DNA from: an uncultured Candidatus Saccharibacteria bacterium
Lineage (GTDB): Bacteria > Patescibacteriota > Minisyncoccia > Phycocordibacterales > UBA9973
DNA: 64,000 nt
Direction: 5' to 3'
Assembly (NCBI GenBank): GCA_964473175.1
Contig: CAYYNN010000003.1
Span: 7,057-71,056 of the forward strand
Shown here: piece after piece, positions 1,922-40,378 of the stretch
Layout of the letters: each line of letters opens with the position of its first letter
Numbering within the stretch: the stretch's first letter is position 1
Notes under the pieces: generated by a model
What the model was told of the DNA's origin: nothing
Databases searched by the model: none
What the model saw: only the letters and a program-made list of their open reading frames with translations
Translations under genes and position numbers: made by a program

Positions 1922-4900
1922 TCAACTCAACACCTTTGCTTTATCTACAATGATAGATTTTCGGTCATTTTTCTCTGAAACACTACATTGAATAGCGACT
2001 ACTGAACCCTCCATAATCATGCTACCAAACTCCTTATATGCCTCAGGGAATATGACCGCTTCAGCTGTGCCGGATTTGTCACGGAGTGTTACAAATGCCA
2101 TACGAGTATTACTTTTGGTCATGAGCGGTTTGATGGTCTCAACCATGCAGACGAGGATTTTCTCTTTTGCCTTCTTTTCCTCCATCAGGGAATGTATTGT
2201 ATTTCCTGATTTTTCTATGCGTTCTATAAACCGATCAAGTGGATGTCCAGAAATATACAGTCCCAGTAGTTCTTTCTCCCATAGCAGCTTTTGTTCCATG
2301 GTAGCGGGGTCAGCGGGAATGAGTACAAGGGTACTTTTTGGTTCTTCTGCCATCCCAAAGAATAAAGAAACTTGCGCACTATCACCGACAGCTATTCCTT
2401 TGTGAAAGGCGAGAAGCGCTTCAGTGTTTGCAAAGAGCGCACCTCGTTCACCAAAGGCATCCATTGCTCCGCACATAACTAATGCCTCCAAGGATTTCTT
2501 GTTGAGGTTTCGATGCTGGACTCGTTCCAGAAAATCTGCGATAGAACGATACTTTCCATTTTTTCTACGTTCTTCAATAATGGCTTTACCAATCTCATCT
2601 CCAAAGTTTTTGATATTACCAAGCCCAAAACGAATATTCATGGTTGTTTTTCCTTCGTCATCAACAACAACCGTAAAGTCAGAGAATGACTCGTTGACAT
2701 CAGGGGGTAGAATAAAGAATCCCATGCGGCGTGCCTCGGCAATATACTCACTACATGTTTCGATATCTCCGCTTTCTGCTGTCATACACGCTGTCAGATA
2801 CTCTGCAGTGTAGTTTGCCTTGAGATATGCTGTCTTGTATGCAACCATCCCATAACTTGCGGCATGAGCCTTGTTAAACCCGTACGCAGCAAATGGTTCA
2901 ATAAGTGCCCAGAGCTCATCTATCTTTTTCTTCTCAAGCCCGCCATGTTCTTTACATCCTTTATAAAACTTTTCTTTTTGTAGTGCCATTTCTGCGGGAA
3001 TTTTCTTGCCCATGGCTTTTCGGAACTTATCAGCTTCGCCCCAGTCGTATCCGGCAAGTCGGATGGCAGTGATCAAAACATCATCTTGATATACGAGTAG
3101 TCCATATGACGCTTCCAGATCATCTTTGAGTCGAGCATCGGGATATTTAACAAGTTTTGGATTTTGTTTGCGTTTAATATACTCAGGAATCACTTCCATT
3201 GGTCCGGGACGATATAGTGCAACCATTGCCATAAGGTCGTCAACTGTTGTGGGTTGCAGGTCTTTAACATACGCTGTCATACCTGAACCTGCCATTTGGA
3301 ATACACCCATAGTTTCACCACGAGAAAGCATGTTGAAAACATTAGCATCATCCAAGGGGATATTGTCGATGTCGATATCAATACCTCGAATCTTTTTTAC
3401 TCTGTCGATAGTACCGGATATAAATTGAAGGTTGCGGATACCCAACATATCAAACTTTGGAAGGTTCACGACACCGTCACGTCCACCGGTGAACATGTCG
3501 TATTGGGTGATAATTTTATTTTCGCCTTTTGTATCGTACTGTATCGGTGTGTATTCAGTAATATCTGGAGTAGGGGAAACAATCACGCCCGCAGCATGGA
3601 CTGAAATATGGCGCACATTTCCTTCAAGTTTTTTGGCTAGGTTGATGATCTCTGTTGTTGCTCGATCATTTTCATACTGTTCTTTGAGTTCAGGAACAAT
3701 AGAAAGTGCATGTTCGATAGTCATAGGAAATCCTTGACTCCCCATCGGGATCATTTTTGAGATTTTGTCCCCAACGCCATATGGATATCCGAGTGCTCGG
3801 GCAACATCTCGCACACTACCTCGTGCAGCCATCGTTCCAAAGGTACAGATCTGTGCGACTGCATGCATGCCGTACTTTTCTTTGACATATGATATTAGGT
3901 CATCGCGTCGATCGTCTGCAATGTCGAGGTCAATATCAGGAATACCTGGCCGAAGAGGGTTGAGGAATCGTTCAAAGGGGAGTTTATATTTAATAGGGTC
4001 GACAGTTGTAATACCGGTCAAGTATGATACGAGTGAGCCCGCAGCAGATCCTCGAGTGTTTGTATAGATACCCATGTGGCGTGCTGCTTTCACTAAATCA
4101 GCTTCAACTAAAAAGTAAGAAGAAAATCCTTTATTTCGAATGATATCTAATTCAAATTCTATACGATCTTGTACGACCTGCGAATCAGGATACGACATTT
4201 GTTGGATGCCGAGGAGTACAGCCTTACGAAGTTCATCATCATAATTACTTCCTTCAGGGATAGGATATGTAGGGAATTTCCATGGAGATGTTTCGATGTC
4301 GATATCGACAGATGCAGCAAGTTTGAGTGTGTTTTCAATTGCTCCAGGAACATCTTTGAATATTTCTGCTGCTTCCTCTGGGCTGATGAATGAATAGTTA
4401 CCCGCTTTCATTGAGATTTTACTAGAACCCACCTCGGTACCGGTATTAATAGCAACGAGTGTATCGTGGGCTTCTGCGTCGTCGACATTGAGGTAATGTG
4501 AATCCCATGTTCCAACCATGGGCAGATCCATTGTCTGTGCAATGGATATGATTGTAGGAATCAGTGGAATATACCATGTAACTTCTTTGTGGTTCATGAC
4601 TTCGACATACACCTGTTCTTTGCCAAACGTATCGATATAGAACTGCAACAACTTTTTTGCTTCTTCAATATTGCCATCCCGTAGGTACTTGATAAATCGA
4701 CTTCCAGGACATCCGGACAAGCAAATAATACCTTCGCTATGTAATTGCATAAGTTCAGTATCGATTCTCGGTTTGTAGTAATACCCTTCGATGTTTGCCT
4801 TGGAGACAAGTTTCATCAAGTTTTTGTAGCCAGCATTGTTTTTTGCCAGAAGTGTGAGGTGGTAACGTTTGCTATCAATACCAGACTCTTTATCAAAACG

Positions 4901-8538: not shown

Positions 8539-9408
8539 TTAATCAAAGATATGGAGGAGGTACGTATCAATATCTCGTTGCTCTAATGCATACATATAAG
8601 TATTTTCTTCGTGGAGTGTTGCCGCCAAGGCTTTCCCTACAAATCTCCAGTGCCACGGTTCATAGACGTAGTAGTTGTTATTTTTTGGGTAGGATAGGAT
8701 AAAGCCATATTCGTATGCATGTGCACTCAACCATTTGAACTCAGGTGTCGTATCAAACGCAGTAGTGAGGCTACCTGTTTTTGCAGTAGTGAGATCGGCG
8801 GTAGTACCGAGCTGATGTTCTGAATATCCTTGTTCTGCTGAGAATTTATTTGCTGCTGTTGTTCCATACGTTACTTTGTAGGCTGCTTTGAGTGTTGTTT
8901 GTGTACCGTACGATCGATATGCACTTGCTATACGGAGATTTAATCCTTCTGCGTTTGAATCATCAAGCATTGCTTTCATATCTGACCATGCACTTCCATG
9001 GAATTGGAGTTTGCGATCTGTTCCACGAGCATACTCGGCTGGAATATCGATAAGAGAACTTGGAACATAATGTTCATTCAAGAAATATACCTTTGAATAC
9101 TTTTTCAGAAGTTCAGGATCTAATGTCGTCAGTTTGGTTAATGTATCAACCGTATCACTAAGGGTATTCGTTTGAGCTGCTAGTGCTCCGGCACGTTCTT
9201 GGCTAGTCGTTAGCACTGTCGTCAATCGATCACGTTCATATTGTGAAAGAGATAAGTTACCTTGAAGTTCTTGTATCGACGACTGCAGATTTGCAATGGT
9301 TACTTGTTTAGCATTCAGTGTAGTTACTATTTTGTGGTATCGGTACGCTCCATAAGCAGATAAGATTAATAAAAGGAAGCTTATAGTAGAAATGATACCG
9401 ATACGCAT
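8539..9408 (-). CDS. VanY-family (M15B) D-alanyl-D-alanine carboxypeptidase with an N-terminal TM anchor and coiled coil
   Basis: SAYRSY, SEHQLGTTADL and EPWHWRFVG motifs. Start trimmed to MRIGIIS. Confidence 0.75.
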   Translation of the reverse strand: MRIGIISTISFLLLILSAYGAYRYHKIVTTLNAKQVTIANLQSSIQELQGNLSLSQYERDRLTTVLTTSQERAGALAAQTNTLSDTVDTLTKLTTLDPELLKKYSKVYFLNEHYVPSSLIDIPAEYARGTDRKLQFHGSAWSDMKAMLDDSNAEGLNLRIASAYRSYGTQTTLKAAYKVTYGTTAANKFSAEQGYSEHQLGTTADLTTAKTGSLTTAFDTTPEFKWLSAHAYEYGFILSYPKNNNYYVYEPWHWRFVGKALAATLHEENTYMYALEQRDIDTYLLHIFD

Positions 9409-9755
9409 TTTATAAGTACGGAGAAGCATGTAGGGATTGTACCACGGCCCTCTGGTGCTATCAGAGAGTAGTTTGTTCAATTGCTGAAAAAATATAAAAC
9501 AAATACAAAACACCTCCTTTCGGGGGTGTTGCTGTAGAAGGTCGTTCCTAAAAACTTGCATAGAGGGTTAGTACTCAGATCATAGAAACCGTTACTACAT
9601 TGCTGCAGAAACAATGAATACTCCATGAGCCTTCCAAACAAGCGAGAAATAAAGGTAAAACCTTATATATACTGTACTCCGATTTAGTCACAATAGATAC
9701 TATCGGTATCTATAAGTATGTGTCATAAGCGATGTAAGAACAGTAATCTTTTCGG

Positions 9756-10412
9756 TTAAGCTGAAGGATCGTGTTTTGGTGGGTGCCATTTATGGAGTGG
9801 CTTGAAATCTCCTCCAAAGATGCCAGCATCAAGGGTTGCTGTGAGTACTGCGCGCATACATTGATAGTCTGCATTGAAGTCATGTGTCCCTGCCATCCAA
9901 GAAACACTCTCTGTACTGATCTCCACACCTTCTTCATCTAGCGATTGAAGAATTTCCTTTGCGGTGCGCCATGCTATTTCCATGATTTCACTTTCTTGGA
10001 GTTTCATTTTTGAAATATCACCTTCAAACACCGTAATGAAATCTCGAACCCAAATACGAGAACCGGTCTTCTTGCTTGTACGCCAAGGGATCAGTTGGTA
10101 TGGATTTATCTTGAGTCCGACTTCTTCTTCGAGTTCTTTGAGTGCTCCCATTTTGAATGATTCTCCCTCAACAATGTGTCCACCAAAATGTGTTGACCAT
10201 GCACCAGGAAAATTTTCTTTATCCATGGGGCGGCGATGACAGAGTATGTCTCCCTCTGTGTTTAATATAAAAATATTGGTAGTTCGACACCATAGCTTGT
10301 CTTGATACAGCTTAGCGCGCGAAACATGCTCTCCTGTTGGTTCTCCTGTGTCCGGATCTACTATTTGTAATAATTCATGTTGTGCCATAGGGTCGAGAGT
10401 ATAGCACATCAT
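9756..10412 (-). CDS. NUDIX hydrolase
   Basis: Nudix box GGHIVEGESFKMGALKELEEEVGL. Start trimmed to MMCYTLD. Confidence 0.75.
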   Translation of the reverse strand: MMCYTLDPMAQHELLQIVDPDTGEPTGEHVSRAKLYQDKLWCRTTNIFILNTEGDILCHRRPMDKENFPGAWSTHFGGHIVEGESFKMGALKELEEEVGLKINPYQLIPWRTSKKTGSRIWVRDFITVFEGDISKMKLQESEIMEIAWRTAKEILQSLDEEGVEISTESVSWMAGTHDFNADYQCMRAVLTATLDAGIFGGDFKPLHKWHPPKHDPSA

Positions 10413-12548: not shown

Positions 12549-12806
12549 CTAGGGTACAAAGTTAGCAGCCTTATCGATAGCCTCCTCTTTTGCTGGTTGT
12601 ACCTGTTCATGCCAGCATGCCTTGATATCCCATCTGATCGGCCATTCAAATATACAATTGCTAGCGAAGAAATAGATAAAGGCTCCTATAAACACCACAA
12701 CGAAAACAATGGCCGTGAGAACCCATTGGAATTTCTCCTGCTCAGACATTTTGCGGTCCTTATACTTTCTTGGTTTATAGTATTTATATCTACCCATATT
12801 GGGCAA
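12549..12806 (-). CDS. Small single-TM hypothetical protein (85 aa)
   Basis: Basic N-terminus then a hydrophobic helix; sits in the island flank. Confidence 0.3.
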   Translation of the reverse strand: MPNMGRYKYYKPRKYKDRKMSEQEKFQWVLTAIVFVVVFIGAFIYFFASNCIFEWPIRWDIKACWHEQVQPAKEEAIDKAANFVP

Positions 12807-12859
12807 TATATTACCACTTTATTGACTTGTAATGCTATTCGATCAATGATCGTCGGTGT

Positions 12860-13063
12860 ATGAAAAATGAAACAGAAACATTCCCCAGACACACCTGCCA
12901 GTTTTGCGGCTGTGATCGTAAATTGGTCCAAACCCTGATTGATGACGAGTTTATCTGGGATGAAAAATCTCAAACATACGTACCTAATGGATTTACAGAT
13001 ACTTTTGAGCATACCGGTTATGCATACTGTCCCGAATGCAAAGAACAATGGACCGGAGCGTAA
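12860..13063 (+). CDS. Small zinc-ribbon protein (67 aa)
   Basis: CQFCGC ... CPEC cysteine pairs. Confidence 0.3.
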   Translation: MKNETETFPRHTCQFCGCDRKLVQTLIDDEFIWDEKSQTYVPNGFTDTFEHTGYAYCPECKEQWTGA

Positions 13064-13271
13064 CTTTTAATTTGAGATCCTCATATTAAAGGTTAAGGAT
13101 CCAAACTTTAATATGACTATGTAAGCAAAACTGCACCCGATCGTCTATAAAAGTGGTTATCCACATTGAATGGGAACTAATTGAAATAATTGTCAATCTA
13201 GGTTATACTATATTTAGTCTCATCTACCATGCGTAGAAGGAGCATCAGAAACCGTCCCGCAAGGGGCGGTT

Positions 13272-13772
13272 TCAGCTTTTAGGGGTATTCTTTCTGTAGT
13301 TATCCCTCTCTCTTTTAAATGATTCAATGCGGTGAGTGCTTGTCACATGATAGGCACTCAATAAGACAAATTTAGTACTTCGCTTTGATAGCACTACCGC
13401 AAACTGTCCTTCCTCGTACCAAATTACAAAGTTTTTAGAAGACTTTCTCTTACTTTCCCAATATGAAATATTCGGATGTGTTTCGTGGTTTTTAATGACC
13501 CAAGCGATCCAAGAAATACGCTCGCACCGTCTCATGTCTGGCGTTCTTTCAGACTCTTTTTCTCCCTCAGATATGATATGCCAGAAAGTAAAATGTTTTC
13601 CTTTTGTGGGCTCGAAATATCTAGTTTTAATCGGTAGGCCGAGAAAAGTTAGACTGCCATTTACAATGGTATCCTGGAATATCTTAAAAAGAGCATCCTC
13701 GTATGGTTGCCAATCTCCAGGAAATTCAAAGATTTCTGGTGGCTGCTGATTATCTATTGCTTCGGTCGCCAT
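13272..13772 (-). CDS. Uncharacterised 166-aa protein, downstream partner of the DUF3800 gene
   Basis: Start overlaps the DUF3800 stop by 19 nt, indicating translational coupling; hairpin at 13248..13273 follows; no family recognised. Confidence 0.5.
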   Translation of the reverse strand: MATEAIDNQQPPEIFEFPGDWQPYEDALFKIFQDTIVNGSLTFLGLPIKTRYFEPTKGKHFTFWHIISEGEKESERTPDMRRCERISWIAWVIKNHETHPNISYWESKRKSSKNFVIWYEEGQFAVVLSKRSTKFVLLSAYHVTSTHRIESFKRERDNYRKNTPKS

Positions 13773-14470
13773 ACAAGAACGTTAAATTTATCCTCATCCT
13801 TTGCAGAAGACGTAAGCATTTCAGTCTCTCCGATACTGCTCTTTATGACTTCTATTACTTTCTTTTTACCCTCATTTGAGCTTAATGCTCGGTGGGTATA
13901 AGAAAGTGCACCAATAAGAATATCTACTAATTGCATGAGCTCGACTTCATGGGACCTAATCTGTTGTGCCTTCGAGACAGCAAACACATCCTCAACACTC
14001 GCAATGTTGAGTATTCGCTGTAATTCCTGAACTTTTACGTTGCTCTTGGTATCCTTGATATCGAGATAAAGATTGTATTCTGATGTTTCAGCCTCTCTTC
14101 CCACTATCTGGTTAAGCAGAACATAGAACATTTTGTAATACCAAGTGTTGTGGTCCTGTCCAAAAGCTGAGTGGTCCAAAATACTTTTGTCAGGTACTAC
14201 CACCCCCCTAAAGTGTAGGTTTTCATTGCTGAAGAAATACTTTGCTAGGTCACAGTAATAGTCAGCTTTTGCCGGTGATACTTTTGTCCATTTTGCCTCA
14301 AAGTTTTCAGCCAGCTTGTGTTTGATTTTAATATCTCTCAAATCTTGGAATATCTCAGCTGTCTTGTCCTTAGAAACCCATACAGCTCCAAGCACAAAAG
14401 TCTTGTTTTTATCATTCAACAAGTGGCAACTTTCATCGCAATAAATATTATAGGTTTTTTTGGCTTCCAT
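13754..14470 (-). CDS. DUF3800-family protein
   Basis: N-terminal YNIYCDES motif typical of DUF3800 (YxDESG) and the DILIGALSY region; divergent from the restriction-modification operon. Confidence 0.55.
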   Translation of the reverse strand: MEAKKTYNIYCDESCHLLNDKNKTFVLGAVWVSKDKTAEIFQDLRDIKIKHKLAENFEAKWTKVSPAKADYYCDLAKYFFSNENLHFRGVVVPDKSILDHSAFGQDHNTWYYKMFYVLLNQIVGREAETSEYNLYLDIKDTKSNVKVQELQRILNIASVEDVFAVSKAQQIRSHEVELMQLVDILIGALSYTHRALSSNEGKKKVIEVIKSSIGETEMLTSSAKDEDKFNVLVWRPKQ

Positions 14471-14545
14471 GCGGAAAATATTTTACCACATTTAGCCTAT
14501 TTTATATAGGAGAAAACCTTTATTTTTAGGTGAAAAAATGGTAAA

Positions 14546-14746
14546 GTGTTGTGTAATATGACTCCGGTTGCAAGTCCAAACAAAATAGAAACCTACATCA
14601 AGTGCAAGAAGTGTGGCACCGAGGTTTTTACTATTACAAACGGTGGATTAACTGCATGTAAGTGTGGGGCTATTTCGGTTGATGGGTCAAAGGATCTTGT
14701 AAGGGTTCTCGGGAATTCTGAGGACTACGAGGAAATACAAAAATAA
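14546..14746 (+). CDS. Small zinc-ribbon protein (66 aa) immediately upstream of hsdR
   Basis: CKKCGTEV ... CKCG cysteine pairs; ends 5 nt before the hsdR start. Confidence 0.35.
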   Translation: MLCNMTPVASPNKIETYIKCKKCGTEVFTITNGGLTACKCGAISVDGSKDLVRVLGNSEDYEEIQK

Positions 14747-14750
14747 ATTT

Positions 14751-17309
14751 ATGAACAAAAAAGAAGCATCAGCAAGAATAAAAATAAACAAACTCCTCGA
14801 GGAAGCAGGATGGCGTTTTGAGGCGGATAAAAATGGTCCGGCAAATATTCAACTTGAGCCAGGAGTTAAATATTCTGAACTTGGTGATGATTTTGAACAT
14901 GAGGTTCATGGTTTTATAGACTTTCTGCTTTTAGATAAAGACAATCGACCGCTACTCGTTGTTGAAGCGAAGAAAGAATCCATTGATCCACTTTCTGCAA
15001 AAGAACAGGCTAGAAACTATGCTCGAAATGTCGGTGCTCGCTTTGTCATTCTTTCAAACGGAAATATTCATTACTTCTGGGATACAAAGCATGGTAATCC
15101 AGATACCATCTCACGATTCCCAACACAAGAATCAATTACTCAGTATGAGAAATACACACCTAATCCTGCTGAGCTTGCGAACACACCAGTCGATGAAAAC
15201 TATGTCGTGGAGACTCAGATGCCCACCTTTGCAAAAGACCCTGCTTTCCAAGATGAATCTACTCGCTCTGAGTTTTTGAGAACCAATAACCTTAAGCAAC
15301 TTCGTCCTTATCAGGTCCAGGCTATTAAAGCACTTCAGGAATCAGCAAAAGAAGGTAAACAGAGATTTTTGTTTGAAATGGCAACAGGTACAGGAAAGAC
15401 TCTTATCTCGGCAGCAGTTATTAAACTATTCTTGAAATCTGGTAACGCACGCAGGGTCCTATTCCTCGTGGATAGAATCGAACTTGAAGATCAGGCTTTT
15501 AAGGCGTTTAGAAATTATCTTGGTAAAGACTTTGGTTGTGTGATTTACAAAGACAGTCGTGACTCATGGCAGAAAGCTCAAGTAGTAGTTTCAACAATTC
15601 AATCATTCCTCGCTGGTGATAAATATCGCAAAGAGTTTTCACCTACGGATTTCGAGCTGGTTATCTCAGATGAATCACATCGATCAATTGGCGGTAATAG
15701 TCGTGCGGTATTTGAATATTTTGTGGGCTATAAACTTGGCCTTACTGCTACTCCTAAAGATTACCTTAAGGGGTTTGATAACGACGGTGCCGACACTCAA
15801 AGAGAATTTGAGAGACGACAACTACTAGATACCTATAAAACGTTTGGATGTGAGGCAGGACAGCCAACATTCCGCTATGACCTTATAAAAGGTGTTCAAG
15901 ATAAATTCCTTATCAATCCTGTAGTGGTAGACGCTCGTACAGAAATTACAACTGAGCTTTTGTCAGACAAAGGCTATGCGGTCCACACCACAACCGATGA
16001 TGGTGAGTTGATTGATAAGGTTTTTAACGAACGACACTACGAAAGAAAGTTCTTCAATGAAGAGACCAATATTGCCATGAGCAAGGCATTTATCGATAAC
16101 GGCTTATTCGATCCTGTAGCGAAAGAGCTTGGTGTGAACTTGTTTGGTAAATCTATCGTGTTCTGCGTCTCTCAAAAACATGCGGCAAGAGTTACAAATA
16201 TCCTCAATAGGCTAGCATTTGAAAAGTGGCCAGACCTGTACAGTGAGTCTAACTTTGCAATGCAAATAACATCTCAAGTGTCCGATGCGCAGCAGATGAC
16301 GATTAACTTTGCCAACAACATGCTCGGTGGTAAAACAAACAAGCCAGAGGGATACGATTCAAGTAAAACTCGTGTTTGCGTGACTGTAGGAATGATGACA
16401 ACTGGATATGATTGTCAGGATATTTTGAACATTGCCCTTATGCGACCAGTGTTCAGTCCCTCAGACTTTGTCCAGATCAAGGGTCGTGGTACTCGAAAGC
16501 ATTTATTTGAATATCAAGATTATTCGACAAATGATAGAACTGCTTTTCCTAAAGACAAATTCAAGTTCTTCGACTTCTTTGCTACATGTGAATATTTTGA
16601 AAAAGAGTTCTCATACGATGAAAAGATAAAGCTACCTACTATTAAACAGCTTACCGGTCCCGAGACCTCGATTGATACCAATGCTACTCAAGGTGAGTTT
16701 GTAGATGAGAATGGTCAGAAGATATTCAAAGGACCTGTAGATATTGATACAGATGACAAAGTCGTATCAGTAGCTGAGACTCATGTCGGTGACCAAGGTA
16801 TGCGCATTGATCGTGAAGGTTTCAAGCGTGCCATAGAAGAAGACGTGCTTGGAAACCAGACTCTCAAGAATATGTGGGATAACGGCGACACTGAGGAAGC
16901 TGAGGATTACGTAAAGAAAAATATCCTTGATAAACCTAAGCATTTCCTCAATCTTGCTAATATTCGTAAATTGTTTAATGTTGATCGTCGCATCACCGTT
17001 AAGGAGTTTTTACAGGTAGCATTTGGACAAAAAACAGGCTTTGAAACAAAAGACGACTTACTAGAATCCGAATGGACCAAGTTTACAGAAGTGAATCCTG
17101 TGGACCAAGAACACTTTGATGCAGTTAAGAGTTTTTTCAAAGCTTACATTGTCGACAGTGAAGTGAGAGAGATTATTAAAAAGAATACTCCTGCTCAGTT
17201 TAACTTCTGTGCCACCTTCGGCTTTGATGAATATCAGAAACTAAATGGTTTCAAAACGGTCGTACCTCAATACATTAATGATTACGCTTATCAGCTAACC
17301 AACCTATAA
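14751..17309 (+). CDS. hsdR: Type I restriction enzyme R subunit-like protein (N-terminal PD-ExK nuclease plus SF2 helicase)
   Basis: HsdR_N-like D...VVEAKK motif; helicase motifs ATGTGKT, DESHRS, LTATP and QIKGRGTR. Confidence 0.8.
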   Translation: MNKKEASARIKINKLLEEAGWRFEADKNGPANIQLEPGVKYSELGDDFEHEVHGFIDFLLLDKDNRPLLVVEAKKESIDPLSAKEQARNYARNVGARFVILSNGNIHYFWDTKHGNPDTISRFPTQESITQYEKYTPNPAELANTPVDENYVVETQMPTFAKDPAFQDESTRSEFLRTNNLKQLRPYQVQAIKALQESAKEGKQRFLFEMATGTGKTLISAAVIKLFLKSGNARRVLFLVDRIELEDQAFKAFRNYLGKDFGCVIYKDSRDSWQKAQVVVSTIQSFLAGDKYRKEFSPTDFELVISDESHRSIGGNSRAVFEYFVGYKLGLTATPKDYLKGFDNDGADTQREFERRQLLDTYKTFGCEAGQPTFRYDLIKGVQDKFLINPVVVDARTEITTELLSDKGYAVHTTTDDGELIDKVFNERHYERKFFNEETNIAMSKAFIDNGLFDPVAKELGVNLFGKSIVFCVSQKHAARVTNILNRLAFEKWPDLYSESNFAMQITSQVSDAQQMTINFANNMLGGKTNKPEGYDSSKTRVCVTVGMMTTGYDCQDILNIALMRPVFSPSDFVQIKGRGTRKHLFEYQDYSTNDRTAFPKDKFKFFDFFATCEYFEKEFSYDEKIKLPTIKQLTGPETSIDTNATQGEFVDENGQKIFKGPVDIDTDDKVVSVAETHVGDQGMRIDREGFKRAIEEDVLGNQTLKNMWDNGDTEEAEDYVKKNILDKPKHFLNLANIRKLFNVDRRITVKEFLQVAFGQKTGFETKDDLLESEWTKFTEVNPVDQEHFDAVKSFFKAYIVDSEVREIIKKNTPAQFNFCATFGFDEYQKLNGFKTVVPQYINDYAYQLTNL

Positions 17310-17313
17310 AACT

Positions 17314-19815
17314 ATGAATGCAGAAACCAAAAGACATATAGATGCAGCCAGGCAGGTCCTCGTAGGCGTGGTCCCTAACCCAACTTCTCAAATAGATCAG
17401 ATCACCAATGCACTCATCTATAAATTTATGGATGATATGGACCAATCTGCAATCAAGTCTGGTGGCGAAGCATCATTTTTTACAGGTGACCTCGAGAGAT
17501 ATGCTTGGACCAGACTCATGGATACTCGTGTTGGAAACCAAGAGCGAATGAATCTCTATTCAGAGGCATTGGTAAAGTTTTCAGAATCAAAACAACTTCC
17601 GGAACTATTTAGAAATATTTTCAAATCAGCATATTTGCCATATCGGTCCCCAGATGTACTCGGGCTATTTCTAAAAGAGATAGATTATTTTAATTACTCA
17701 CATCCCGAAGAATTGGGAAATGCATATGAGTATTTACTTTCAATCATGTCATCACAAGGTGATGCTGGGCAGTTCCGCACACCGCGTCACATTATCGATT
17801 TTATAGTTGAGGCAGTAAATCCAACCAAAGATGACAAGGTCCTAGATCCTGCATGTGGTACTGGAGGCTTCTTGATTAGTGCCTACAAAAATATTCTCAA
17901 GCAACACGATGGTAAAGATGATCCAAAGAAAAAGGAAAAGCCTCTTACTCCCGACCAGCGCCGAACTTTAATGCAAAACTTTGAAGGGTATGACATCGAT
18001 CCTGGAATGGTCCGTATCGCACAGGTAAACATGTACCTACACCAATTCAAGAATCCAAAGATTGTACAGTATGACTCGCTTTCAATGGATGAAAGGTGGA
18101 ATGATAAATTTGATGTGATATTAGCAAATCCACCATTCATGTCTCCGAAGGGTGGTGTAAGTACTCATAATAAGTTTGGTATTCAATCGACTCGGTCCGA
18201 AGTGTTGTTTGTGGACTACATAATGAATCATCTTAGACCAAAAGGTCGCGCCGGCATCATTGTGCCAGAGGGAATAATCTTCCAGTCGGGCGCGGCTTAC
18301 CAGCAACTTCGGAAAAATCTTGTAAACGATGGTCTGTATGCTGTAGTAAGTTTGCCATCCGGAGTATTTCAACCTTACAGTAGTGTGAAAACTAGTATTT
18401 TATTTTTTGATAATGAAATCTCCAAGAAAGCTAGTGATGTTTTGTTTGTAAAAATTAATAATGATGGTTTTGAGCTTGGTGCTCAACGGAGACCATTAAA
18501 AACAAGTCATATCCCAGCTGCGATTGAGATATTGCGCCTTTATAAACAACGTGTTCTTGAAGGTGGAAAAATCACATTTCAAAGTGATGATGAGTTTGCG
18601 GTGCTAGTTCCGAAGGAAAAGATAGCAAAAGACAATGATTACAATCTTTCAGGTGATCGTTATCGCGCTACGTCTGATTTTACTAGTACTAAATATCCAA
18701 TGGTTAGGATAGATGAGGTTTGTGAGATATTAAGCGGTGGCGGTTTTCCAGTAGACGAACAAGGCGCTACAAATGGAGATATTCCATTCTTAAAGGTTAG
18801 TGACATGAACTTACCTGGTAATGAAATATGGATTAATCATGCAAATAACTTTGTTAATAAGGAAACACTGAAAAAACTTAAGGTTAAAACTGCGCCAAAA
18901 GGAACAATAATTTTTCCTAAGATTGGTGCAGCCATCGCTACAAATAAAAAGAGAATTTTATCTCGGGAATCTGCTTATGACAACAATGTTATGGGGTTAA
19001 TACCTAATGAAAAAATAAATCCATCCTTTCTTTTTTACTTGTTGAAACAACTTAATCTATCTGATTGGGCATCTGCATCAGCTTTACCATCAATAAGAAA
19101 ATCAGATGTTGAAAAATATTTGATTACTCTTCCGCCACTTGAAGTTCAAAAAGAAATTGTAGAGCAAATTGAGGTTAGACAAAAGGCTATCCAGGGCGCT
19201 CGGGAAGTTATCAAAAATCTAGAGAGAGAGAGACGATATTTTGGCCAGTCACTTAAAAAGTTAAATTATCAAATGACAGACATGGCTAATATATTTAATA
19301 AAGTAAGTGATCAGATTAATCCGCAACAATATGATTATGAGGTAGTTTATATTGGGCTTGAAAATATTGAATCTAACTCTGGTGTTCTAGTTGGGGATAT
19401 AAAATCTAATACAAAATCAATTAAAAGCATAAAGGGGGCTTTTAAAAAAGGAGATATCCTTTATGGAAAACTAAGACCGAATTTAAATAAGGTATGGTTT
19501 GCTAACTGTGACGGAATTTGCTCAACAGATATTTTAATTCTGCGTCCCACATCAAAAGAAATATCATCAAAAGTTTATTCTCTTATTTTGCAGAGCGATG
19601 AATTTAATCGAGAAGTATTGAATGGTATCAAAGGTGCTCAATTGCCCAGAGTAAGTTTTGATTATATATCTAAAATAAAGATCCCCGTTATTCCATATGA
19701 AGATCAGAACAAATTTATTTCAGAAATGGAAACAGAAGAAAAAGTAATCGAGTTAAACAAGAAAATTATTGAAATCCTGGAGAATAAGATTTCTGTAACC
19801 TTGAGTGAAATATAA
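17314..19815 (+). CDS. N6-adenine DNA methyltransferase (HsdM-like) fused to a single HsdS-type target recognition domain
   Basis: DPACGTGGFL motif I and NPPF motif IV; C-terminal roughly 380 aa resembles an HsdS recognition domain with a conserved helical spacer. Confidence 0.8.
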   Translation: MNAETKRHIDAARQVLVGVVPNPTSQIDQITNALIYKFMDDMDQSAIKSGGEASFFTGDLERYAWTRLMDTRVGNQERMNLYSEALVKFSESKQLPELFRNIFKSAYLPYRSPDVLGLFLKEIDYFNYSHPEELGNAYEYLLSIMSSQGDAGQFRTPRHIIDFIVEAVNPTKDDKVLDPACGTGGFLISAYKNILKQHDGKDDPKKKEKPLTPDQRRTLMQNFEGYDIDPGMVRIAQVNMYLHQFKNPKIVQYDSLSMDERWNDKFDVILANPPFMSPKGGVSTHNKFGIQSTRSEVLFVDYIMNHLRPKGRAGIIVPEGIIFQSGAAYQQLRKNLVNDGLYAVVSLPSGVFQPYSSVKTSILFFDNEISKKASDVLFVKINNDGFELGAQRRPLKTSHIPAAIEILRLYKQRVLEGGKITFQSDDEFAVLVPKEKIAKDNDYNLSGDRYRATSDFTSTKYPMVRIDEVCEILSGGGFPVDEQGATNGDIPFLKVSDMNLPGNEIWINHANNFVNKETLKKLKVKTAPKGTIIFPKIGAAIATNKKRILSRESAYDNNVMGLIPNEKINPSFLFYLLKQLNLSDWASASALPSIRKSDVEKYLITLPPLEVQKEIVEQIEVRQKAIQGAREVIKNLERERRYFGQSLKKLNYQMTDMANIFNKVSDQINPQQYDYEVVYIGLENIESNSGVLVGDIKSNTKSIKSIKGAFKKGDILYGKLRPNLNKVWFANCDGICSTDILILRPTSKEISSKVYSLILQSDEFNREVLNGIKGAQLPRVSFDYISKIKIPVIPYEDQNKFISEMETEEKVIELNKKIIEILENKISVTLSEI

Positions 19816-20491
19816 ATCTATGAAGAAGGCAGCTAAAAATCAGTTAGTAAATTATGACAAGCAACTTGAACAACAACAAGAAAAGTTTTTAATCTTGCTT
19901 GGTAATAATGGCCTACCAACTGAGGGTATATTTGTCCCAATCAAAGAAAGAATAGCTGTTTTCTCTAACGCTAACTCTCTGCTCGATAATATAGATAATG
20001 GTCAAAGGTCCGAGGCAATATATGTTTCAAAATTCTTCGCAGCTGTTGGTGCCGGTCTATTTGATGCTGCTTTAAATTATATCTGGGACGAAACTATTCT
20101 TCATTTAAGAAAACGTGTAGAGGTCTATGATCTTGAATATTTCTATGAAATAGCTGCCTCTCCAGATAAAAGAAAAGACCTAAAAACCATTGACGATATT
20201 TCAAAGCTTACAGACGACGAATTGCTTAGAGGTGCTCTCAAAATTGACCTAATTTCAGAAACTGGCTACAGAAATATGGATCTTGTTAGGTACATGCGTA
20301 ACAACGCTAGCGCGGCACATCCTAATCAGCTAGATATTACAGGGCTGAAACTTACGTCAATGGCTGAAGATTGTTTGAGAGAGGTAATCTCTACACCGAT
20401 TCCTCCTGCTGCAATCGCAGTTCAAAAACTTCTCGAGAACATTAAGACAACAGCGATGACAGCTAGTGACGCTAAAGAATCCTTATTTTAA
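19805..20491 (+). CDS. Uncharacterised 228-aa protein translationally coupled to the methyltransferase
   Basis: Start overlaps the methyltransferase stop by 11 nt; no family recognised. Confidence 0.5.
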   Translation: MKYKSMKKAAKNQLVNYDKQLEQQQEKFLILLGNNGLPTEGIFVPIKERIAVFSNANSLLDNIDNGQRSEAIYVSKFFAAVGAGLFDAALNYIWDETILHLRKRVEVYDLEYFYEIAASPDKRKDLKTIDDISKLTDDELLRGALKIDLISETGYRNMDLVRYMRNNASAAHPNQLDITGLKLTSMAEDCLREVISTPIPPAAIAVQKLLENIKTTAMTASDAKESLF

Positions 20492-20496
20492 GCGGT

Positions 20497-20641
20497 AAAA
20501 GTAATGCACCATTTTTTGCACTTTTTACACATTACGATAAGGACAGTCCTAAGAAAGTAATTCCTACAGTTAGGAAAATTTACAGCCTTAGGATTACAAC
20601 GTTGGTCCCGAAAAGTAATGCAACACGTTTTTCACTTTTTG
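20497..20641 (+). repeat. Two copies of a roughly 31-bp direct repeat (aaaagtaatgcaNcaNNtttttNcacttttt), 114 bp apart
   Basis: Copies at 20497..20527 and 20611..20641; short inverted repeats tcctaa/ttagga lie between them. Confidence 0.35.
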
Positions 20642-20909: not shown

Positions 20910-21899
20910 ATGGACGACAAAATAAATCTAAACGAGGAATGGCAGAGAGCTCTCAGTCAGAAGTACAAATCGCCGAAACGAGTGGCGAAGTTCGAAGAAT
21001 TCAAAAAGACCCACCTCGAACAAACCAGGAGTGAAATAAATCCGGACACACTTCGCAGTAAGAAAAAGCCCAATAGGTTTGTTGTCGATAACGAGTATGT
21101 CAAAGGTTATTACCTAGCGAAATTTCCACCAGTCTGTTCTCAGGTTCTTTTCACGTTACTTGTCCATTGTAACCTCAACAGGCAGGATGCCTTTCCGAGC
21201 ATTGTCACCATTCAAGAACTCTCCGGATGTACCAACACTCGAAGTGTCATTAGTGCTCTGAGGATTCTTGAGGCCTACGGGATACTCAACATTCGTCGGT
21301 CCAAGAGAGGGATAAAAGCAGTGAATGTCTATTTCTTTCAGTCGGTCCGACATTGGAGACCACTCTCAAAGAGCATGAAAAAGATTAAGCTCACTGATCC
21401 ATTACCGCAATGGCAAAATTCCGTCCAGAGCACTGGCAGAAAACAGACCTATCGTACTGGCCCTACTGCCAATCTAACTAACCTAAGAGAAAACTATAAT
21501 AATAAAATACAAAATATTGGAGATATTTTAAGGGAAAGATTCAAAATGCCAGAAGACCCGTCTAAGGTTGCTATTCCCACACCTTCTAGCAATACTGTCG
21601 TCGATGACAAAAAGGCAGAAGACATGGGACCTGATACGCTTGTTAGAACAGGTGAAAAACAAGAGTATCGTACTGGCACTAATGCCACTACGATTGATAC
21701 CCGTAATAACGGGAAATTAACGGGAACCGAAAGTCAGAGACATGGCATGTCATCAGCCGTTTATAAACGGGAAATAACGGTCGAAAAACCTCCCGAGGAT
21801 CCATTTATAAATGGAGAAAAATGGACTAAGGAAGATGGAGGTATCGGCCTGATGAATATCAACAATGAAGACATCGGACCAGGAAGCGCAACATTATAA
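20910..21899 (+). CDS. Winged-helix DNA-binding protein, plasmid/phage replication-initiator-like, with C-terminal KQxYRTG repeats
   Basis: wHTH-like segment FPSIVTIQELSGCTNTRSVISALRILEAYGIL; repeats KQTYRTGPTA and KQEYRTGTNA. Confidence 0.45.
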   Translation: MDDKINLNEEWQRALSQKYKSPKRVAKFEEFKKTHLEQTRSEINPDTLRSKKKPNRFVVDNEYVKGYYLAKFPPVCSQVLFTLLVHCNLNRQDAFPSIVTIQELSGCTNTRSVISALRILEAYGILNIRRSKRGIKAVNVYFFQSVRHWRPLSKSMKKIKLTDPLPQWQNSVQSTGRKQTYRTGPTANLTNLRENYNNKIQNIGDILRERFKMPEDPSKVAIPTPSSNTVVDDKKAEDMGPDTLVRTGEKQEYRTGTNATTIDTRNNGKLTGTESQRHGMSSAVYKREITVEKPPEDPFINGEKWTKEDGGIGLMNINNEDIGPGSATL

Positions 21900-21904
21900 A
21901 AACT

Positions 21905-23569
21905 ATGAACAACACAAAACCAACAATTAAATACTTCCTCTACGCACGTAAATCAAGCGAGGCAGAAGACCGTCAGGCAGCGTCCATCGATGCCCAGAAA
22001 GACGAGCTTATGAAGATTGCAAAGGATCAAGGCTTACACATCCTAGATATCCTTGAAGAATCACAATCAGCCAAAAAGCCAGGCAGGAAAGTATTCAACT
22101 CAATGCTTGAGAGAATCTATAAAGGAGAAGCCAATGGCATCCTGTGTTGGAAACTAGACCGCCTAGCACGTAATCCTGTCGATGGTGGCCAGATAAGTTG
22201 GATGTTGCAGCAGAGTGCCGTATCTCAAATTGTTACCTTCGGCCGAACTTACTATCCCACTGACAACGTTCTCATGATGCAGGTCGAACTTGGTATGGCC
22301 AATCAGTTTATCCGAGACCTATCAGTGAACGTAAAGCGAGGTCTACAAAAGAAGGTAAGAGATGGATGGATGCCAAGTGGCGCACCGATCGGATACCTCA
22401 ATACTCCAAATAAACAAAAGGGTTATAAGACTTTGGAAAAAGATCCTGAAAGATTTCCACTGGTCCGAAGACTCTTTGACCTTGCACTTACCGGCAATTA
22501 TTCAATGGCCCAGATTTGGAATATCTCAAGAAAGCAGTTGAATCTCCGAACGGTCCCACGTAGGAACATTGGCGGCGAACATCTTTCACGGTCAGCAATT
22601 TATGCAGTCCTTGGTAATCCATTTTATTACGGCTGGTTTGAGTTTCCGCTCCACAGTGGCAATTGGAATAAGGGAGCGCATGAGCCAATGGTAACCAAAG
22701 AGGAATTTGATCAAGTACAAAAGGTTATGGGTAGAACCAACCAGCCACGTCCACGACATGAGGAGAGAATGTTCGCTTTTACCGGCCTTATGAAATGTGC
22801 CACTTGTGGTTGCAGTATTACAGCTCAAGCCAAAGTAAAGCGTTGCAAGAATGGTAATGTTCACCATTATGTTTATTACAACTGCACCAAAAAGAGATAT
22901 GACGCTGGCTGCACTGAAAAGCATGTCGAAGTAAAATTGCTACACCTCCAGATCGGGGCAATACTTAAGGATATAAAAATTTCAGAAGAATATCGTGACT
23001 GGGCGGTCCGCCATGTCCATGAGGTTCGCAAGAATGAAGCCGAGAGTGACTCAATTGCAATAAGGACCAAACACAAGGAATGTGAAGAAGTGACGCAGCA
23101 GCTGCAGTCTTTGACTTTGAACTTCACTGCACCCTCCAACAAGGCTCGAAACGTTATTGGCGAACAGGAATACCAGTCTCTTAAGTCTGAGCTACTCAGA
23201 AAGAAGGGTCTTCTTGAAGACGAATTAAAGATCAAGAATAAGGCGGTCGAACAATGGGCAGAACTTTCAGAACAAACCTTTGACTTTGCTTGCTATGCAC
23301 ACCTTTGGTACGAGAATGGCGATGAAAAGACCAAAAGAGCGATACTCGCATGCCTTGGCTCGAACCTCACCATTTCAGACAAAAAGATCCAGCTTTCTTA
23401 CAGTTCTTTCTTTTTGAGCCTCATAAAAGCACGAGAAGCTATTCAACAGGAAATAGAGCACGCTCGAACCTACAAAAAGCCAGGCCACATACGACAAAAG
23501 TGGCATCATGTGCCACTTTTGTCAGTCAGGCTCCCCCGGCTGGATTCGAACCAACGACCCATCGCTTAA
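21905..23569 (+). CDS. Large serine recombinase (resolvase domain, recombinase domain and zinc ribbon)
   Basis: YARKSSE catalytic serine motif; CATCGC ... CTKK zinc ribbon; coiled-coil C-terminus. The last 13 codons are antisense to tRNA-Asn. Confidence 0.85.
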   Translation: MNNTKPTIKYFLYARKSSEAEDRQAASIDAQKDELMKIAKDQGLHILDILEESQSAKKPGRKVFNSMLERIYKGEANGILCWKLDRLARNPVDGGQISWMLQQSAVSQIVTFGRTYYPTDNVLMMQVELGMANQFIRDLSVNVKRGLQKKVRDGWMPSGAPIGYLNTPNKQKGYKTLEKDPERFPLVRRLFDLALTGNYSMAQIWNISRKQLNLRTVPRRNIGGEHLSRSAIYAVLGNPFYYGWFEFPLHSGNWNKGAHEPMVTKEEFDQVQKVMGRTNQPRPRHEERMFAFTGLMKCATCGCSITAQAKVKRCKNGNVHHYVYYNCTKKRYDAGCTEKHVEVKLLHLQIGAILKDIKISEEYRDWAVRHVHEVRKNEAESDSIAIRTKHKECEEVTQQLQSLTLNFTAPSNKARNVIGEQEYQSLKSELLRKKGLLEDELKIKNKAVEQWAELSEQTFDFACYAHLWYENGDEKTKRAILACLGSNLTISDKKIQLSYSSFFLSLIKAREAIQQEIEHARTYKKPGHIRQKWHHVPLLSVRLPRLDSNQRPIA

Positions 23570-23602
23570 CAGGCGATTGCTCTACCGCTGAGCTACAAGG
23601 GA
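23531..23602 (-). tRNA. tRNA-Asn (GUU)
   Basis: Minus-strand cloverleaf: acceptor TCCCTTG/CGGGGGA, anticodon loop CTGTTAA, T-loop GGTTCGAATCC. Confidence 0.8.
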
Positions 23603-39989: not shown

Positions 39990-40328
39990 ATGCTCTGGAT
40001 CGCCTATGCTGACTCTGTTGACACCTTGCTCAACAAGCTGAACAAGAATATCATCAACCCTGCTATTGAATTTGCATTCATTATCGCGCTGGTGGTGTTC
40101 TTGTGGGGTATCATGGAGTACATTCGTGGTGCCAACAGTGAAGAGAAACGCAAGGACGGCAAACAACATATGCTATGGGGGACGATAGGGTTTGTGATTA
40201 TGTTGGGAGTATTTGGTATCATCAACCTCCTCATTGGAACGTTTGGTATCAAAGGTGCAACGATCAACAACGATCAACAAACCTTCCAAGCTCCGCCCAT
40301 ACAGGAATTGAAATTCCCACAACAATAA
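39990..40328 (+). CDS. Minimal 112-aa two-helix protein P5, a VirB2/TrbC-like pilin candidate
   Basis: FLWGIMEYIRGANSEEKRKDGKQHMLWGTIGFVIMLGVFGI is the same module without extra domains. Confidence 0.5.
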   Translation: MLWIAYADSVDTLLNKLNKNIINPAIEFAFIIALVVFLWGIMEYIRGANSEEKRKDGKQHMLWGTIGFVIMLGVFGIINLLIGTFGIKGATINNDQQTFQAPPIQELKFPQQ

Positions 40329-40378
40329 ACAAAAAAAGCCGCTCCTTATGGAGCGGCTTTGTGTTTTCTTCGAAAGAA

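Follow-up and report, generated by a model that had tools for sequence, protein, structure and literature searches.

What role might a DUF3800 gene and the gene that overlaps it play together, and what else belongs to them? The question is raised by a short segment of a 64,000-nucleotide (nt) stretch of DNA from an uncultured Candidatus Saccharibacteria bacterium (assembly GCA_964473175.1, contig CAYYNN010000003.1, positions 7,057 to 71,056), referred to throughout as the window. Gene A (13754..14470) encodes a DUF3800 protein of 238 amino acids (aa) with the N-terminus MEAKKTYNIYCDESCH, as read from the open reading frame (ORF) listing and the sequence; gene B (13272..13772) encodes a protein of 166 aa built around the core FWHxISEG...ERTPDxRRCERIxW. 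Both lie on the minus strand. A first-pass annotation, made from the sequence alone, had described the two as translationally coupled and had proposed them as a candidate two-gene anti-phage or toxin-antitoxin module. The analysis reported here identifies the pair as a member of the family to which rlfA and rlfB of phage P1 belong, and shows that the locus very probably forms a real cassette of three parts: an RlfA-like protein, an RlfB-like protein and a small structured RNA encoded just downstream of gene B.

The coupling of the two genes is borne out by the ORF listing, in which positions 13754-13772 (19 nt) are shared by both reading frames. In locus L009, a relative in the candidate phyla radiation (CPR), the overlap has the same length and the pair lies in an island with two serine recombinases.

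Both proteins match, end to end, the models of a single PADLOC candidate defence system, PDC-M04. Residues 5-237 of A align with positions 3-229 of the 232 in profile PDLC04353 (PDC-M04A; E 3.6e-80), while B matches PDLC04357 (PDC-M04B; E 1.6e-50) as well as 11 more PDC-M04B profiles. The proposed two-gene module therefore coincides with a catalogued candidate, although the small RNA described below makes a third component that the proposal lacked. To our knowledge, the definition of PDC-M04 comprises two proteins, and the small RNA is not part of it. The system is one of 145 PADLOC candidates, derived from genes found inside BREX, DISARM and type I restriction-modification (R-M) operons (Payne et al., bioRxiv 10.1101/2024.01.29.577857), and a literature search for the term "PDC-M04" found no paper. 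As in the rest of this family, which is tied to type I R-M, the genes in the window are adjacent and on one strand; unlike the operon-embedded form, the window pair is divergent from its R-M operon.

The same two proteins are also found in phage P1. A shares 48.7% identity with P1 RlfA over 100% of the query (E 4e-65), and B shares 41.5% identity with RlfB over 89% of the query (E 3e-33). A search of annotated phage genomes further showed that rlfA/rlfB of P1 are rapA/rapB of P7, and returned a more distant A-B pair in Bifidobacterium phage Bbif-1. Gene order and start-stop coupling are the same in P1 and in the window, and the same RNA lies just downstream, the P1 copy being found at 4663-4740 on the minus strand of locus L011 (74.6 bits with the covariance model described below). 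The detailed annotation of P1 contains no RNA gene or feature between rlfB and pmgF. The surroundings differ: in P1 the pair follows kilA-repL (repL/oriL), carries its own C1 operator and is annotated as "possibly associated with lytic replication", rlf standing for "replication-linked function", whereas the window pair lies near R-M genes and a serine recombinase. No repL homologue adjoins the pair in the window, and most genome loci likewise have none. Both rlfA and rlfB were scored as non-essential for P1 in a genome-wide CRISPR interference (CRISPRi) screen, and P1-like plasmids that lack both genes exist and persist. PDC-M04 and P1 rlfA/rlfB are thus the same family, of which the window pair is a new, Saccharibacteria-type member; as a gene pair it is not new.

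Protein A is assigned to DUF3800 by Pfam (PF12686) with 49.9 bits (cut-off 21; E 7e-13), as the first-pass annotation had recognised from its N-terminal motif. That annotation had also held B to have no recognisable family. This is correct for Pfam, in which B has no match, and for NCBIfam, in which neither protein has one, but not for PADLOC, as noted above, nor for PHROGs, in which B matches phrog_16230. The latter group is labelled "replication protein", a label that most probably derives from the rlf gene name alone. Homologues of RlfB in RefSeq and GenBank (P0006 and P0025; E. coli H28-H30 and H33) go under the names "oxidoreductase", "replication protein" and "hypothetical protein" or carry no annotation; the first two names are unsupported by any result obtained here and are misnomers.

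The residues of A point to an enzyme. The DUF3800 motifs have been defined as an N-terminal DE and a C-terminal QxxD (Mestre et al. 2020, PMC7736814), and both are present in A, whose catalytic set consists of D12-E13 (within CDES), D137 and Q180-x-x-D183. Across 42 homologues of A, D12-E13 and D183 are invariant and Q180 nearly so. A nuclease-like fold, which the first-pass annotation had considered would be informative, is also what the structural comparison suggests: A resembles RNase H2, with the four carboxylates in the expected elements, and its nearest folds are RNase H2 enzymes, PIWI not being among the closest. A is accordingly predicted to be a metal-dependent nuclease of the RNase H2 type in which the D-E...D...D metal-binding set is intact. 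Protein B is small, basic and arginine-rich, and is translated from the frame that overlaps A. A profile of B searched against all PDB sequences yielded a single chance match (MifM, E 0.4), and Foldseek against the PDB returned nothing significant. Assignment of B to the RelE/HigB/colicin D (BECR) ribonucleases was considered and was not made, the Foldseek comparison with the PDB having given no significant match and the fold call being weak. Both proteins are predicted to be soluble and nuclease-like.

Lack of joint conservation in other genomes was one of two outcomes that, according to the first-pass annotation, would have refuted its idea; the genes are, however, found together elsewhere. 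In a word-indexed search of a large protein database A had 6941 relatives and B had 49, while a full profile search for B gave 1770 clusters at 50% identity, nearly all of them stand-alone proteins of 150-185 aa. With one genome taken per species, relatives of B are encoded in 527 stretches, from Saccharibacteria and other Patescibacteria to many proteobacterial classes, Nitrospirota, Chloroflexi, Acidobacteria, Verrucomicrobia and one Thermoplasmatales archaeon. Among the best 80 of these 527 stretches, in which genes were called by a simple longest-ORF rule, 78 have a DUF3800 gene that directly precedes B in the same orientation, either overlapping it or leaving a gap of a few tens of nt. 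The two exceptions are L048, a decayed locus with a fragmented B, and L051, in which B is truncated and A undetected. Gene A likewise lies directly upstream of B, on the same strand, in all 17 viral loci found through B, and the consistency of the arrangement in both samples shows that the pairing is not due to chance. A P1-type cassette occurs in 121 of 5426 complete E. coli genomes (about 2%), and 123 of its 128 places there are on plasmids. On a metagenome contig of 84 kb (JACCDR011610896.1, positions 8973-10224; L118), the B and A proteins are 99.4% and 95.4% identical to those of the window, and this contig probably comes from the same organism or a very close relative.

The third part of the cassette lies 3' of gene B. 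Here a non-coding stretch, at about 13201-13290, is 81-92% identical by blastn to its counterparts in other phyla, although the coding DNA of those loci can no longer be aligned with that of the window. On the plus strand, a sigma-70-like promoter (13181..13209; TTGAAA, a 17-nt spacer and TATACT, 10 of 12 positions matching in the promoter scan) is followed by a small RNA gene of about 68 nt (13217..13283) that was found by blastn and nhmmer, is aligned with its relatives in the alignment A4 and is convergent, tail to tail, with B. The RNA begins with a near-invariant hairpin, P2 (13219..13242), formed by CUCAUCUAC, the loop CAUGC and GUAGAAGGAG; there follow a linker, CAUCA, and a second hairpin, P1 (13248..13273; GAAACCGUCCC-GCAA-GGGGCGGUUUC), which varies in sequence among the relatives and covaries, and then AGCUUUU. 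P1 and the U-tract are likely to act as a terminator. The 3' end of the RNA overlaps the stop codon of B (13272-13274) and its last codons. The window RNA has a predicted minimum free energy of -28 kcal/mol (z -5.4), and a covariance model built from the alignment matches it at 13215-13286 with 75.5 bits (E 9e-18). The same model gives a second, weak match far from the A and B genes (40322-40378, minus strand; 21 bits, E 0.0045 at rough calibration), which is probably due to chance.

With a 71-nt nhmmer query, the element was found 3' of B in 83 of 91 loci (E 0.01 or better), including phage P1, P1-like plasmids and the archaeal locus. The alignment A4, comprising 69 sequences read on the strand opposite to A and B, displays a TTGACA-N17-TATAnT promoter and a conserved G about 7 nt later, followed by the near-invariant P2 with the loop CAUGY, the conserved linker CAUUCGA and P1, whose sequence is variable; C13, C14 and G20 are invariant. 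The tail of the alignment, CAGC(C/U)UUUU, is the reverse complement of the last codons of B and its stop. Phyla whose A and B proteins share just 40-50% identity still agree at about 85-90% in the hairpin and linker.

That these sequences represent a folded RNA is indicated by their pattern of change. In A4, 95% of the cells at paired positions hold standard pairs, compared with 35-52% when the partners are slid, and both partners have changed in 16 of the 20 pairs. Covariation scores 0.41, as against 0.21 in shuffled alignments, and none of 500 shuffles reached any of the observed measures. In helix 1 (P2; 8 pairs, 96.9% paired) five pairs have changed on both sides, and in helix 2 (P1; 12 pairs) eleven have done so; RNAalifold independently predicts the same two helices. 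The strand can be determined from the G-U pairs, of which there are 143 cells on the RNA strand versus 4 (A-C cells) for the strand of A and B, with 96.0% and 85.7% of cells paired, respectively. The folded molecule is therefore the transcript of the strand opposite to A and B.

The promoter is conserved along with the fold. In a best-match scan against shuffled sequences, a promoter with at least 9 of 12 matches was found in 35 of 73 related loci, compared with 3.6% of shuffles, and the -10 box ends 6-7 nt ahead of the conserved G in 43 loci; the right-aligned logo is blurred by spacing differences of 1-2 nt. Two simpler accounts of the conserved stretch were ruled out. It is not merely a bidirectional terminator, since its most conserved part is P2 with the linker and the positioned promoter; neither is it a small ORF starting from the AUG in the loop, since the downstream "codons" would fall in the covarying, sequence-variable stem.

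In the 17 viral loci, all outside the set from which the covariance model was built, the RNA was found beside B in every case (E 5e-7 to 3e-20; rough E-values, but with high bit scores). In 14 of these loci the RNA and B are convergent. In the remaining three, distant viral relatives, the RNA lies on the strand of B, 70-120 nt 3' of that gene (L104, 6571-6646; L107, 5308-5382; L108, 6558-6632). Two alphaproteobacterial loci have tandem RNA-like elements, two copies each, 3' of B (L030, 8478-8554 and 8573-8628; L042, 8456-8530 and 8549-8604). In the decayed locus L048 (7500-8550), gene A is absent and B is reduced to a C-terminal fragment, yet the RNA is intact (81.9 bits). Taken over all these loci, the parts of the cassette are co-inherited across domains of life, from Saccharibacteria to proteobacteria, an archaeon and phage P1.

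The RNA also occurs by itself. An exact search with the hairpin core gave 30 metagenome and 9 viral loci, most of them with A and B in the expected place. On seven distinct contigs, however, a full-length RNA (50-85 bits, model positions 1-77) is present with no A or B detectable in the locus: L139, 371-447; L140, 12077-12153; L141, 9217-9290; L142, 3020-3096; L143, 7504-7577; L147, 5672-5747; and L129, 10984-11061. L140, L141 and L142 are related phage contigs, and the L143 copy stands just ahead of a small ORF and the gene for the large terminase. In these four contigs the 3' tails of the orphan RNAs are not remnants of the B C-terminus, which indicates that they are not simple decay products. 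The orphans sampled are few, and contigs of IMG/VR may contain some host DNA; with that proviso, these RNAs may be phage-borne decoys or RNAs that function independently.

The genomic context of the pair is dominated by type I R-M genes, in agreement with the defence association that the first-pass annotation had suggested; the second outcome it had named as refuting, a lack of enrichment in defence islands, thus did not refute the idea either. Among 140 neighbouring proteins from 35 loci, the most frequent Pfam families were Methylase_S (13), HSDR_N (12), ResIII (11) and N6_Mtase (10). In 37 of the 78 loci that have both genes the pair is flanked by hsdR, hsdM or hsdS, on the strand of the pair in 36 of the 37; an R-M gene lies no more than 2.5 kb away in 35 loci, and R-M genes stand on both sides in 18, typically in the order hsdM-hsdS-[A-B]-hsdR. 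Many contigs being short, these counts are lower bounds. The cassette is found within type I R-M operons, in P1-like phage-plasmids, on other phage contigs and in recombinase-bearing islands.

In the window, the R-M genes are divergent from the pair, as the first-pass annotation had stated: they occupy 14546-19815 on the plus strand, beginning 75 nt from the start codon of A. A DUF7695 zinc-ribbon ORF of 66 aa (14546-14746; E 2e-9) separates the pair from an HsdR-like helicase-nuclease gene (14751-17309), which is followed by an HsdM-HsdS fusion gene (17314-19815). The end of the fusion gene overlaps by 11 nt a 228-aa ORF (19805-20491, plus strand) that has no Pfam or PADLOC match and matches only phrog_27609, a group of unknown function; the ORF has been added to the R-M operon as an accessory gene and may be a further gene linked to defence.

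The first-pass annotation had further placed the pair inside an integrated element, and this is plausible. A large serine recombinase ORF (554 aa; 21905-23602) overlaps with its last 41 nt the 3' end of a tRNA-Asn gene (23529-23602, minus strand), which suggests integration at tRNA-Asn, and an HTH_36/replication-initiator-like ORF is found at 20910-21899, 6 kb from the pair. A pair of 30-nt direct repeats with 87% identity (20497-20526 and 20611-20640) lies upstream of the latter gene and could be iteron-like; another pair, of 43 nt and 74% identity (21429-21471 and 21645-21687), lies inside it. The left border, on the other hand, is not definable: the window contains neither att-type direct repeats, the absence of which is expected for serine recombinases, nor a second tRNA-Asn 3' end that would mark the other border, and its base composition shows no sharp island boundary. 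A smaller mobile unit is indicated by the closest relative, a Saccharibacteria metagenome-assembled genome (L012), in which an 84% DNA match extends from 13190, in the RNA promoter, to 14488, 18 nt upstream of A, the flanks beyond being unrelated. As the similarity is confined to this interval, the unit that moves is the cassette of A, B and the RNA.

What, then, might the cassette do? Together, the PADLOC match, the conservation of the pair, its R-M context, its non-essentiality in P1 and its mostly plasmid location in E. coli favour a conflict system, serving in defence or addiction, with the RNA as regulator or antidote, a reading to which we would give roughly an even chance or slightly less. 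We infer that the RNA is bound by the proteins, since its sequence is far better conserved than theirs, since the co-oriented loci and the orphan copies show that antisense pairing is not its conserved role, and since the terminator stem is the only part that is free to vary. On the most economical model, the three parts would form a module of RNA and protein, akin to type III systems, that works by toxin-antitoxin action or abortive infection. The RNA would be synthesized constitutively, and its invariant hairpin, bound by the A and B proteins, would either restrain their nuclease activity or be needed as a cofactor. When a phage infects the cell, or when the cassette is lost, RNA and protein would fall out of balance; the nucleases would then act, A by cutting RNA or RNA:DNA hybrids and B possibly by cutting tRNA or mRNA, and phage replication would be stopped or the cell killed. 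The phage orphan RNAs might act as decoys, in the manner of pseudo-ToxI; phage-borne RNA mimics of ToxIN were reportedly described by Blower and colleagues in 2012.

Several other explanations must be weighed against this conflict-system reading. The RNA could be a plain cis-antisense transcript whose sole action is to pair with the A-B mRNA at its 3' end and so tune B, with no protein-binding or trans role; a precedent is txpA/RatA, a type I toxin-antitoxin system with a 3' antisense RNA. The convergent arrangement in the window and in most of the viral loci, the overlap with the stop and last codons of B and a terminator hairpin common to both strands are all consistent with this. Yet complementarity that arises by construction needs no conservation, and it is the hairpin and linker, rather than the proteins, that have been conserved; moreover, the RNA lies on the B strand in L104, L107 and L108, orphan copies have neither A nor B, and B is not a small hydrophobic peptide. 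Together with the decayed locus L048, which has kept its RNA, these observations argue that the RNA is more than a cis-antisense transcript, and we consider that explanation unlikely. It is very unlikely that the cassette serves replication, with an RNase H-like enzyme, its partner and the RNA processing primers or R-loops for a replicon. The position of the P1 genes after repL/oriL and their C1 operator, the predicted RNase H2 fold of A, the PHROGs label of B and the replication-initiator-like gene 6 kb away in the window could all be read in this way; but most loci have no replication genes nearby and nearly half lie in chromosomal type I R-M operons, the genes are dispensable in P1 and in the P1-like plasmids that persist without them, and the label most probably reflects no more than the gene name.

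The RNase H fold, being shared with PIWI and RuvC, also calls to mind an RNA-guided or RNA-templated nuclease, in which the DUF3800 protein would use the RNA as a guide or scaffold. This, too, is highly improbable. A programmable guide would need a variable single-stranded segment, which the RNA lacks, its terminator stem alone varying and that by covariation; and the closest folds of A are RNase H2 enzymes rather than PIWI. Finally, the abrupt ends of the match between the window and L012 at 13190 and 14488, and the highly varied contexts of the cassette, would suit a selfish mobile cassette of no benefit to the host, which would spread by inserting itself in R-M operons and mobile elements, its hairpins being recombination or end sequences at the level of DNA. 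However, the excess of G-U pairs on one strand and the conservation of the promoter indicate an RNA rather than a double-stranded DNA site, the cassette has no terminal inverted repeats and no recognisable transposase or integrase, and A resembles RNase H2 enzymes most closely; we regard this last explanation as quite improbable.

A conflict system built from an RNase H2-like protein and an RNA has likenesses among known systems, none of which it fully resembles. Type III toxin-antitoxin systems (ToxIN, CptIN, TenpIN) offer a functional analogy only, in that a small structured RNA encoded in the same locus controls a nuclease. In those systems, a tandem-repeat RNA array lies upstream of a toxin of the ToxN/AbiQ fold and is processed by it, whereas the cassette RNA is single-copy, downstream and usually convergent, has its own promoter and accompanies two proteins of other folds; neither ToxN nor AbiQ appeared among the folds that A or B matched. 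Type I systems are characterized by a small membrane-active peptide toxin, and neither A nor B, soluble proteins of 238 and 166 aa, is of this kind. Retrons of type VII combine a reverse transcriptase with DUF3800 (Mestre et al. 2020, PMC7736814) and thus likewise pair an RNase H2-like DUF3800 protein with a dedicated non-coding nucleic acid; the retron proteins, however, carry DEED and lack the Q of QxxD, where A carries D-E, D and QxxD, and neither a reverse transcriptase domain among the window neighbours (Pfam) nor, when the window was scanned with Rfam, a retron or group II RNA was found. Cas12a2 and Cas12a3 loci contain TPR-DUF3800 accessory proteins (PMC10910872, PMC13594972), which again place an RNase H-like domain of DUF3800 in a defence locus, but these carry TPR repeats and adjoin CRISPR-Cas, neither of which is present in the window cassette.

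The closest likeness in form is to the DUF3800-associated RNA motifs, DUF3800-I to XI, drum and skipping-rope (Weinberg et al. 2017, PMC5737381), which are structured RNAs with a 3' terminator that adjoin a DUF3800 gene in either orientation. Although Rfam includes DUF3800-I (RF02969) and DUF3800-IX (RF02968), no Rfam 15 model matched the RNA at gathering score when the whole window and 19 related loci were scanned. A scan of window positions 12800-14800 and 13170-13300 at E up to 10 likewise found nothing relevant. The small RNA and its orphan phage copies appear to be unreported, the comparison having covered the Rfam models; the window RNA may equal a motif of Weinberg et al. that never entered Rfam.

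Few unexplained domains are as common in defence islands, retrons and CRISPR-associated loci as DUF3800, whose link with many different structured RNAs has puzzled the field since 2017. In its boldest form, the present reading would make the RNA an obligatory, invariant antidote or cofactor of the DUF3800-RlfB pair, and the cassette a new class of RNA-protein module for immunity or addiction in bacteria, archaea and phages, with the orphan RNAs as decoys that switch the system off; this would also explain the ties between DUF3800 genes in general and structured RNAs, and we put it forward only tentatively, as a rather unlikely possibility. For annotation, the consequence is that P1-like records lack an RNA gene. 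Because PDC-M04 is P1 rlfA/rlfB with a near-invariant RNA and its promoter, present in about one in fifty complete E. coli genomes, the puzzle becomes testable in a standard organism; and if the RNA is indeed an antidote or cofactor and the orphans are decoys, the cassette would represent a new RNA-based layer of the arms race between phages and their hosts.

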